Origin: Plasmodiophora brassicae
Taxonomy: Eukaryota
NCBI GenBank assembly: GCA_036867785.1
Contig: CP145410.1
Span: forward strand, 1,612,001 to 1,676,000
Direction: 5' to 3'
DNA: 64,000 bases
The position numbers were made by a program. This document shows, piece after piece, positions 59,201 through 62,200 of this stretch (the stretch's first letter is position 1; every line of letters starts with the position of its first letter).

Positions 59201-62200
59201 TGGTACTATAAGGCAATGCCGACGCAACGTACGCGTGAACCTCCTTCCGCAAACATGACACCGATGGGGCTTCTCACCCGAATGAATGCGCTTGTGCCTT
59301 GACACGGAACTGACCCATTTGAACCGGCGTCCACAGTCGTCGCATTGGTACGGCATCTTCTCAGGATGGCACACCTGGCGGTGTGCGTACAGGTCCTTGG
59401 GCGTCCCATCGACCAGGACCGCACCGCAGTCGCTGCACTTGATGTTCACGTTCGCCTTGACGACGCGCGCCCGGCCTGCCCGACTCGTCATCAACGCCAA
59501 CCTGACCCAATGCTCCCCAAATCCCAAATGACGACACGACACGGCCAACCCCTCAGTGCAGCCGTGCCATGTAACACCCCGCAGGCGTTACAGCCTCGAC
59601 TGGTGACTGCATTGCGCTGCAGTCGGACGACTACCGTATCTCTTGGTACGTTGTCGCCAAACGTGCAAGCAAAATGGACAGGCGGTAAAAAGGTCCGAGG
59701 AAGTCCGCGTGCGCCGTGGGTTGCATGTCCATTGACCGTGTTGACGTGTTCTGCCGGGCAACGTTGGAGCCCTGAGCGTCGGGCCAGCTTCTCTCTCAGC
59801 AGTATGTGACAGCTTGGGCGTTTCAACGGTCACAGGTAAGGCGATGGGAAGCACAGCGTCTGGCGATCCAGAATTCGAGTCCATCTGCGCGGCCAACCTG
59901 TCCCGGCCGCGAATCATATCTCCATCCGATCGAGGAGACCCTGGATCTTCGCAAACCGGGAGTGCGGCATGGCAGTTTCGGTCGCCATGGTTGAGACCAA
60001 AGTTGAAGTTTGCCAGCTACTGCCGTCGTGCAGGCGGAAGAGTGCACGAGCCAAAGATCAGATTGTGCGACGATTTCTGGCGGCCAACCAGTTGACGATC
60101 CGCATTGCAACACATGAAGCGCAGCGGTCGCCGTTGGAGGTCATGGCCGAGGCAAAGGGATTTCTGGACTCGATTCGTCCCCGGTTCATTACCGCGGAAC
60201 GGTTGAGGAGCCATTTCCTGAACATGGACCAGGCACCGGTCTTCTGCGCTTCATGTGTTGCAATGCGGATCGTCAACTGGTTGGCCGCCAGAAATCGTCG
60301 CACAATCTGATCTTTGGCTCGTGCACTCTTCCGCCTGCACGACGGCAGTAGCTGGCAAACTTCAACTTTGGTCTCAACCATGGCGACCGAAACTGCCATG
60401 CCGCACTCCCGGTTTGCGAAGATCCAGGGTCTCCTCGATCGGATGGAGATATGATTCGCGGCCGGGACAGGTTGGCCGCGCAGATGGACTCGAATTCTGG
60501 ATCGCCAGACGCTGTGCTTCGCAGAAAAATATGGACGGCTCGGCAGCCGTCAGACGGGTGTCTTCGGCATGTCCTGCCCAAAGGAGAAATATCACACAGC
60601 AAGTGGTCTGAGGGAAACTATTGACAGGTTTATGCAATGCCGATGTGCGTTTCGGAATGTACAGAAACTATGTACAGGAACAAGACGCAGGCGCATCGTT
60701 TAGAAGCACTTGCGGTGGACGATGGCCGGGCCGGCCTCGTCGTACTCGTCCTTGCTGATCCACATCTGCTGGAACGTCGACAGGGACGACAGGATGGATC
60801 CTCCGATCCAGACAGAGTACTTGCGCTCCGGCGGGGCGACGACCTTGACTCGGATCGACGACGGCGCCAGGGCCGTCACCTCCTTGGAGATGCGGTCGGC
60901 GATGCCGTCGAACATGGTCGTGCCGCCCGACAGGACAATGTTGCCGTACAGGTCCTTACGAATGTCGACGTCGCACTTCATGATCGACTGGTACGTCAGC
61001 TGGTGGATGCCCTCCTGCTCGATGCCGATCAGCGACGGCTGGAACAGGACCTCCGGGCAGCGGAATCGCTCGTTGCCGACCGTGATGACCTGACCGTCGG
61101 GCAGTTCGTACGACTTCTCGACCTCGGACGACTGCTCCGAGTTGGACATCTCGGCGTCGAAGTCCTGGGCGATGTACGCCAGCTTCTCCTTGATGTCGCG
61201 GACGATTTCGCGCTCGGCCGTCGTCGTGAACGAGTACCCGCGCTCGGTCAGGATCTTCATCAGGTAGTCGGTCAGGTCGCGACCGGCCAGGTCGAGACGC
61301 AGGATGGCGTGCGGCAGCGCGTACCCTTCGTAGATGGGGACCGTGTGCGAGACACCGTCACCACAGTCGAGGACGATACCCGTCGTACGACCGGAGGCGT
61401 ACAGCGACAGGACGGCCTGGATGGCGACGTACATGGCCGGCGTGTTGAACGTCTCGAACATGATCTGCGTCATCTTCTCACGGTTGGCCTTCGGGTTCAG
61501 CGGCGCCTCCGTCAGCAGGACCGGGTGCTCCTCGGGCGCGACACGCAGCTCGTTGTAGAACGTGTGGTGCCAGATCTTCTCCATGTCGTCCCAGTTCGTG
61601 ACGATGCCGTGCTCGATCGGGTACTTGAGCGTCAGGATACCACGCTTGGCCTGGGCCTCGTCGCCGACGTACGCGTCCTTCTGCGTCGCGCCGACCATGA
61701 TGCCGGTGTGGCGCGGACGCCCGACGATCGACGGGAAGACGGCGCGCGGGGCGTCGTCGCCGGCGAACCCGGCCTTGACCATGCCGGATCCATTGTCGAC
61801 GACCAGGGCCTGGACTTCCTCGTCACACATGCTGGCGGCTGCTGCTGGGGGTCTCCTGCTGCTACTTGTCGATGTCGGCCTTGGACGAGCGCTATCGAAA
61901 TGATGGCGCTGCGGGTTGGCGCGAGCCCGAGCCACTGTGTCACGGGCAGCGCGGGGGGTCGCGCGCCTCCCGCGCTGCGTGGGTGGGGTGGCGCGCGCCT
62001 CCTGTTACCCATGACGTCACGCGCCCCCGCGACGAACGAATCGCCCGCACCGTATCTTCTTGCCCGTCGTTTATTATTGTAGTCACTTGGCCGGCGATAT
62101 CCCCGACGACTCTGCGAACTCGTGCAGGCCCAGATCCGCCCAGCGTTTGTCGGCGTTCGCGTCCGGTTCCGGGATCTCGTCTGGCAGGAATGAGTATTCG

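Follow-up and report, generated by a model that had tools for sequence, protein, structure and literature searches.

An inverted duplication in a dead pogo-like transposase remnant beside the actin gene of Plasmodiophora brassicae, a candidate source of hairpin RNA

A perfect foldback lies between an actin gene and a zinc-finger gene

The region analysed here, referred to as the window, is a 64,000-nt stretch of the Plasmodiophora brassicae genome (assembly GCA_036867785.1, contig CP145410.1, positions 1,612,001 to 1,676,000 of the forward strand; coordinates below are those of the window). It carries an intronless actin gene on the minus strand (60700..61830, 376 aa; Pfam PF00022, E 7.2e-149, residues 4-376) that is transcribed toward a large foldback. 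The next gene past the foldback on actin's strand is a small C2H2 zinc-finger open reading frame (ORF; 59195..59491, first ATG at 59491; Pfam zf-H2C2_2, E 1.3e-12, and zf-C2H2, E 1.3e-5). The whole foldback, 673 bp in length, sits inside the 1.15-kb gap between these two minus-strand genes and is made of pogo-like transposase sequence. On balance, we hold it slightly more likely than not that this young inverted duplication in a dead transposon remnant is a source of hairpin RNA (hpRNA), that is, a by-product of repair that feeds RNA interference (RNAi) rather than a guardian against transposons.

A search for repeats returned one outstanding inverted repeat (59845-60124 / 60244-60523), with arms of 280 nt and 119 nt between them. 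Base-by-base comparison reduced the uninterrupted complementarity to exactly 277 nt (59848-60124 against 60520-60244); outward of this run comes a mismatch (59847/60521), followed by two further matching positions. The foldback therefore comprises a left arm (59848..60124), a spacer or loop (60125..60243, 119 nt) and a right arm (60244..60520), and both figures given in an earlier note on this sequence, mismatch-free arms of 277 nt and a loop of 119, were reproduced. The same note had the minus-strand actin gene pointing into a right arm that ends at 60520. This is indeed the arrangement, with the actin stop codon at 60702-60700 and 179 nt separating it from the arm.

Within the window, the foldback is exceptional. 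Eighteen inverted pairs were found, among which it is the sole long, near-perfect one; the remaining pairs longer than 41 nt reach a complementarity of just 70-79%. A 27-mer from the arm occurs twice, once on each strand, and in none of 100 shuffles (0/100). For a minus-strand RNA covering 59800-60720 (921 nt), the predicted minimum free energy is -728 kcal/mol, against -318 +/- 7 for 20 shuffled versions (z -60). The locus thus has the structure of an hpRNA, a perfect 277-bp stem closed by a 119-nt loop and predicted to fold as one RNA.

One ORF that crosses the foldback is already on record. The plus-strand ORF at 59987..60310 (107 aa), which runs from the left arm through the spacer into 67 nt of the right arm, is 100% identical to P0001, a called protein in a public collection (source NCBI) and the sole member of its protein cluster. 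The symmetry of the foldback also yields a pair of mirror ORFs of 113 aa each, at 59969-60310 (plus) and 60058-60399 (minus), whose first 52 residues are identical. The plus-strand member tracks genuine transposase sequence across the spacer, and the minus-strand one reads the spacer backwards, where it is also stop-free. GAATTC sites lie symmetrically in the two arms, at 59871 and 60492.

The foldback is built from an internal transposase fragment

The arms and spacer belong to a decayed internal fragment of a pogo-like transposase of the DDE_1 / CENP-B-type HTH kind, which occupies 59775..60243 on the plus strand (delimited by tblastn, with the family taken from phmmer and Pfam). Pfam itself assigned no family to the 93-aa open frame that spans the left arm and spacer. 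When the fragment was searched with phmmer against 1.84 billion representative proteins, 141 relatives were found at E<=1e-3 and 24 at E<=1e-10. Pfam was run on 18 of the 141: DDE_1 (PF03184) is present in all 13 of those that are at least 378 aa long, many of them also with CENP-B_N, HTH_Tnp_1 or HTH_Tnp_Tc5, and the rest comprise one 301-aa protein with HTH domains alone and four short ones without a Pfam family. In every DDE_1-bearing relative scanned, the stretch that matches the window sits just N-terminal of DDE_1. The label "pogo-like transposase" used in the earlier note is therefore right at the level of the family, as judged by this deep search and by DDE_1 in the long relatives.

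The closest relative is P0014, a 154-aa P. brassicae protein recorded in NCBI and UniProt as "HTH CENPB-type domain-containing protein". P0142, also from P. brassicae, is a one-residue variant of it, and another relative, P0005, comes from Spongospora subterranea. In tblastn against the window, P0014 and P0142 match in three collinear pieces (aa 45-55 at 59790-59822, 52-95 at 59812-59943 and 98-152 at 59942-60112), with 86-94% identity per segment at the protein level and one fully identical run of 23 residues. The three pieces lie in three different frames, so the remnant carries two frameshifts, and its description as an otherwise decayed element was borne out by these two frameshifts relative to the closest paralog. 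Both P0014 and P0142 terminate in "...IRIATPI", equivalent to window position 60112; from there to the inner end of the left arm (60124) is only 12 nt.

The remnant corresponds to approximately residues 38-190 of a transposase of roughly 400 aa and is truncated on both sides. On the left, the first ~37 transposase residues have no counterpart in the window, and a low-stringency homology search found nothing convincing beyond ~59775. On the right, longer relatives align as far as 60241-60250. Translation and alignment show that, on the plus strand, the transposase frame of the left arm continues across the spacer as far as NMDQAPVF (NMDQTPIF in relatives), after which the window frame has no counterpart in the family. 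A frame break immediately after this motif had been proposed before; the alignment confirms it and places it at the first catalytic-D motif of the family. By Pfam, tblastn and alignment, the DDE_1 catalytic domain is not encoded at the locus, since homology ends at NMDQAPVF. As for the CENP-B/HTH region, the window matches aa 45-95 of P0014, but Pfam gives no family for P0014 itself. Neither terminal inverted repeats (TIRs) nor a TA target-site duplication could be recognised at the locus, where homology peters out leftward near 59775 and breaks off at 60243 on the other side. Judged by these alignments, the locus is a transposon remnant and not an element.

The right arm is a secondary inverted copy

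The two arms are identical in sequence, and the homology around them is asymmetric. Homology to P0014 crosses the outer edge of the left arm, running from aa 64 (at 59848) leftward to aa 45 (at 59790). On the minus strand, the right arm mirrors P0014 aa 64-152 by tblastn and the homology stops abruptly at 60520, where the outer edge of the arm adjoins the unrelated actin flank. Because transposase homology crosses one outer edge and ends at the other, the alignments show that the left arm and spacer are the original sequence; the right arm was copied later, in inverted orientation, from 59848-60124 and lies against the actin 3' flank. The second of the two frameshifts lies inside the arms and is common to both, so either the remnant had already decayed when it was duplicated, or the arms were homogenised afterwards.

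This polarity bears directly on whether the foldback could be a complete non-autonomous foldback or long-TIR element, similar to a miniature inverted-repeat transposable element (MITE), that was inserted as a unit. The shape would fit, with long inverted repeats around a short centre and 673 bp in total. However, transposase homology runs ~60-75 nt beyond the outer edge of the left arm, so that this edge is not an element end; the arms derive from the coding interior; no target-site duplication flanks the foldback at 59847/60521; and no second copy was found, either of the remnant elsewhere in the 64-kb window (tblastn) or in metagenome contigs. We consider a MITE-like insertion extremely unlikely.

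The junctions carry a trace that would fit copying during repair or replication. The motif TTCTGCG spans the junction between spacer and right arm (60242..60248), and its inverted counterpart CGCAGAA spans the junction between right arm and flank (60520-60526). This inverted microhomology bracketing the right arm, already pointed out in the earlier note, is present as described, and random trials (n = 200,000) produced an inverted match of 7 nt across both junctions in 0.2% of cases. Other short words recur at the arm ends: GAAGC occurs at both ends of the left arm (59848 and 60116), and CGCAG at 60120 and 60520.

Broken ends that undergo snap-back synthesis, and replication forks that switch template, leave inverted copies of limited length with microhomology at the junctions. 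We infer that the foldback arose in this way, by snap-back synthesis, also called microhomology-mediated template switching. The remnant would have been broken or truncated directly after the NMDQAPVF codons; the free or nascent 3' end would then have folded back onto a point 119 nt upstream, from which it copied 277 nt of its own sequence in inverted orientation, and a few bases of microhomology would finally have let the copied end join up again with the actin 3' flank. The coincidence of the fold-back point with the truncation point of the remnant fits a snap-back origin.

The foldback as a candidate source of hairpin RNA

The organism has an RNAi pathway into which such a structure could feed. 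According to the accessible text of a 2026 study (PMC13547706), P. brassicae has two Argonaute proteins (AGOs), no canonical Dicer and no RNA-dependent RNA polymerase (RdRP). A Drosha-like RNase III, PbDRL, is described there as needed for small RNA (sRNA) biogenesis and able to cut long double-stranded RNA (dsRNA) in vitro, which bears out the earlier suggestion that this organism can process long dsRNA. Phased small RNAs of 21 nt with a 5'-C bias account for about 90% of the total, and the sRNA loci are chiefly intergenic, with transposable elements next (PMC13547706). The absence of RdRP, together with that of RNA polymerase IV (Pol IV), is likewise reported in the accessible part of PMC4471660. 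Without RdRP, dsRNA must arise from hairpins or from overlapping transcripts, and the Discussion of the 2026 study treats the origin of the long dsRNA precursors of small interfering RNAs (siRNAs) as an open question (PMC13547706). RNAi machinery without RdRP, combined with a transcribable foldback, makes the locus a sensible hpRNA candidate.

The hpRNA reading that we favour would work as follows. Transcribed across both arms, on either strand, the locus would give an RNA that folds into a 277-bp duplex without mismatches, long enough to yield about 13 consecutive duplexes of 21 nt. The likeliest driver would be polymerase continuing past the actin poly(A) site, which would give some hairpin RNA. 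PbDRL would then dice the hairpin into 21-nt siRNAs, to be loaded into the two AGOs. Because the organism lacks RdRP, these siRNAs would be confined to the arms and would not spread into actin, and this absence of spread may be the reason why such a position is tolerated. The only recognisable targets in trans would be the two near-identical, truncated HTH-CENPB-type paralogs, P0014 and P0142. Transcription through the arms, dicing and targets are all steps that we infer. The transposon's own promoter was considered as a driver and rejected, as no 5' end of the element is recognisable.

If it is active, this important crop parasite carries a natural hairpin locus, and an accident of repair has given rise to an hpRNA. 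Where strong promoters drive transcription into them, foldbacks of transposon fragments in the genome are the obvious candidates for the source of P. brassicae siRNA precursors, and this locus, present in one copy in the window, would be a clean, small, single-copy example and a candidate answer to the precursor question.

A more elaborate version would make the locus a newborn hairpin-RNA gene. Here, actin read-through would be cut co-transcriptionally by PbDRL, the cut serving both as the source of phased 21-nt siRNAs and as an entry point at which RNase III acts as a fail-safe terminator of actin read-through. Read-through would thereby end before the zinc-finger gene, and the siRNAs would regulate the two CENP-B-type HTH paralogs in trans. 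We regard this full scheme as unlikely; if true, it would be a worked example of siRNA-precursor making in a rhizarian without RdRP or canonical Dicer.

Evidence bearing on the structure and on its transcription

Records from sequencing runs and databases were consulted for the locus. By shared sampled words, the segment 59400-61000, or part of it, is present in 20 of the 24 listed sequencing runs, from 11 studies and with plant and soil metagenomes among them; seven runs contain 0.91-0.96 of the sampled words of this segment. Runs guessed to be RNA contain 0.52-0.64 of the words, to be compared with 0.36 for the two coding parts and the actin flank together; the run type is a guess, and a share of 0.52-0.64 could come from the left intergenic part just as well as from the arms. 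Word shares were not accepted as proving the junctions, or RNA across the arms, since the numbers agree with several scenarios.

Several observations weigh against the hpRNA reading. On the structure itself, even the best DNA runs lack 4-5% of the words sampled, and the right-arm junctions make up 3.8% of all words, so a word share of 0.96 is no proof that the junctions are present. P0001, the recorded ORF that crosses a junction, is known from one contig only; seven further window ORFs, which between them cross the four junctions, were looked up exactly, and all (7/7) are missing from the protein collection; and an exact 28-mer of the arm has no match in the metagenome contig collection. On the origin, the CTTC direct repeat at 60241-60244 / 60517-60520 lies within chance, being found in 8.6% of random trials. 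On the function, the remnant shows no recognisable promoter or element end, and no intact member of the family was found, only the two near-identical 154-aa fragments, which is weak evidence of absence. The actin 3' flank (60521..60699, minus strand, 179 nt) is relevant here as well. A minus-strand motif scan found neither AATAAA nor ATTAAA in it, and a single CATAAA at 60634-60629, ~65 nt past the stop codon. If used as the poly(A) signal, this motif might bring most actin mRNAs to an end ~80-100 nt short of the arm, though the poly(A) consensus of P. brassicae may differ; a literature search for the polyadenylation signal of P. brassicae found nothing on this species.

A challenge to the structure is that it could be an assembly or sequencing artefact, with the right arm absent from the organism. 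The perfect identity of the arms would fit an artefact, P0001 is known from one contig only, and the top word shares of 0.95-0.96 could be reached even without the words of the right-arm junctions. However, missed-adapter and foldback chimeras invert to the end of the read, whereas the inversion here ends after 277 nt and gives way to other, unique sequence, in which actin sits in a normal gene order. The spacer is genuine in-frame transposase sequence and not adapter, and the junction microhomology is typical of biological template switching. Because the arms are bounded, the flanks unique and genic, the spacer in frame and the junctions marked by microhomology, the evidence favours a real foldback over a chimeric-read palindrome, and we judge an artefact very unlikely.

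A real structure could nevertheless be a silent scar, a repair-derived inverted duplication with no meaningful transcription and no consequence at the RNA level. It would then be an ordinary structural scar of a dead transposon, a possibility that we consider rather unlikely. It would agree with a remnant truncated on both sides and devoid of a recognisable promoter or element end, and with a possible poly(A) signal well before the arm. Transcription from the other side is not favoured by the gene order either: no plus-strand promoter for the foldback is evident, and the nearest upstream plus-strand gene (57186-58436) is cut off from it by a minus-strand gene. Rfam recognised no known RNA family in 58500-62200 (no matches at E<=1). 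Against silence stands the behaviour of RNA polymerase II (Pol II), which generally transcribes beyond poly(A) sites, and the fact that actin is normally one of the most highly transcribed genes. The word shares of the guessed-RNA runs, higher than the coding parts and actin flank would supply, point the same way, with the reservation on run type given above.

Comparison with known inverted-repeat loci

The earlier note had likened the foldback to maize Mu killer, and in its strong form this would mean that an actin read-through hairpin silences an active pogo-like family in trans and has been kept for that reason. The architecture is indeed shared. As described in the accessible text of PMC3440606, Mu killer is an inverted duplication of part of a transposase gene, located next to a host gene able to supply read-through, with a potential read-through hairpin as siRNA substrate. 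The arms of the foldback are perfect, and both RNAi machinery and sRNA loci derived from transposable elements are described for P. brassicae in the parts of PMC13547706 at hand. The inverted part of a transposase gene is where the analogy stands. The arms (equivalents of aa 64-156) include neither a terminal repeat nor the 5' end, and the search for active family members found none, which is weak evidence of absence.

Further evidence speaks against a Mu-killer-like function, which we regard as distinctly unlikely. A search for near-length P0014 homologs among 5.8 billion protein clusters returned only its own two-member cluster and the window ORF, and searches for long relatives were empty among 87 and 628 candidates, which again is weak evidence of absence. 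The long phmmer relatives, from ENA, Logan, JGI and MetaClust records, are at most 45% identical. The foldback has no recognisable element end. Repeat surveys of P. brassicae report 5.4% and 11.9% repeats, mainly Gypsy, Copia and short and long interspersed nuclear elements (SINE, LINE), and pogo goes unmentioned in their accessible parts (PMC4471660, PMC11191646). Heritable RNA-directed DNA methylation in the manner of Mu killer would not be expected, given the absence of RdRP and Pol IV reported in the accessible part of PMC4471660. Mu killer itself, as far as the available text of PMC3440606 goes, contains two copies of the TIR of its element, forms a hairpin of ~4 kb and imposes heritable silencing on an active autonomous element, whereas the window locus has 277-nt internal coding arms from a dead remnant in an organism without RdRP or Pol IV.

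For the hpRNA reading that we favour, the hpRNA loci of Drosophila are, we think, the best functional analogue, and a better one than Mu killer. In the accessible parts of PMC10317233 and PMC10292708, these are inverted repeats derived from their target genes that produce siRNAs without RdRP and act in trans. They are experimentally shown, depend on Dicer-2 and act mostly against protein-coding selfish genes, whereas the window locus is a candidate whose processing would be by a Drosha-like enzyme.

In C. elegans, dsRNA of the transposon Tc1 reportedly arises by read-through and snap-back of its TIRs (attributed to Sijen and Plasterk, 2003). Tc1 and the window share sequence of the Tc1/mariner superfamily and a read-through, snap-back trigger for dsRNA, which is only proposed for the window. 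They differ in that the natural terminal repeats of intact elements pair in Tc1, whereas the pairing copies in the window come from a secondary duplication of internal sequence.

Two further systems are close in other respects. The legend of Fig. 2G in PMC13547706 describes a palindromic region that generates microRNAs (miRNAs). It resembles the window locus as a genomic palindrome of the same species that folds as an sRNA precursor; its products are called miRNAs, a transposon origin is not described, and the available text gives no coordinates. Alternative transposition of Ac/Ds (bioRxiv 10.1101/2020.01.07.897926) is another case in which rearrangement of a DNA transposon gives rise to an inverted duplication, which according to the accessible text is a source of siRNA there and is a candidate one here. 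The Ac/Ds duplications require transposition with element ends, whereas the window has no such ends and its junctions point to template switching in repair or replication.

A description of the locus was not found in the literature; the sRNA-locus tables of PMC13547706, which lay outside that search, may list it. A literature search on Plasmodiophora inverted repeats and siRNA found nothing about endogenous foldbacks in the portions of text that it returned. From its sequence features, the locus would be a further case of a known class, that of transposon-derived inverted-repeat candidate siRNA loci.

Other features of the window

Around the actin gene and the foldback, the neighbourhood is genic. 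A Cdc6/ORC1-like AAA+ gene lies farther left on the plus strand, and a tandem pair of 45-nt units (58798-58887), 73% alike, lies downstream of the zinc-finger ORF.

Elsewhere, G+C content ranges from ~53 to 72% along the window. The lowest-GC part (0.53) is at 54903-55974, where a 35-nt inverted pair with 94% complementarity, its arms separated by 1002 nt, surrounds AT-richer sequence containing repeated subterminal motifs similar to AATTAGTGT / TACACACTA. This region resembles a non-autonomous DNA transposon of ~1.07 kb, for which a clear target-site duplication was not seen. The G+C peak (0.715) is at 36001-38000, which holds five mutually overlapping ORFs of 272-402 aa on both strands and a sixth that starts at 37706, an overlap typical of very GC-rich coding sequence.

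Two small gene families were also noted. The convergent ORFs at 41271-42260 (plus) and 42313-43314 (minus), of 329 and 333 aa, share a 210-nt stretch with 70% complementarity and form an inverted paralog pair without a Pfam family. A three-member gene family (2950-4260, minus; 6066-7586, minus; 30292-31785, plus) is 71-79% alike over up to 312 nt; it has no Pfam family either and may be lineage-specific. A gene for a pentatricopeptide-repeat (PPR) protein of 961 aa is encoded on the minus strand at 47459-50344 (Pfam PPR, E 2e-42).

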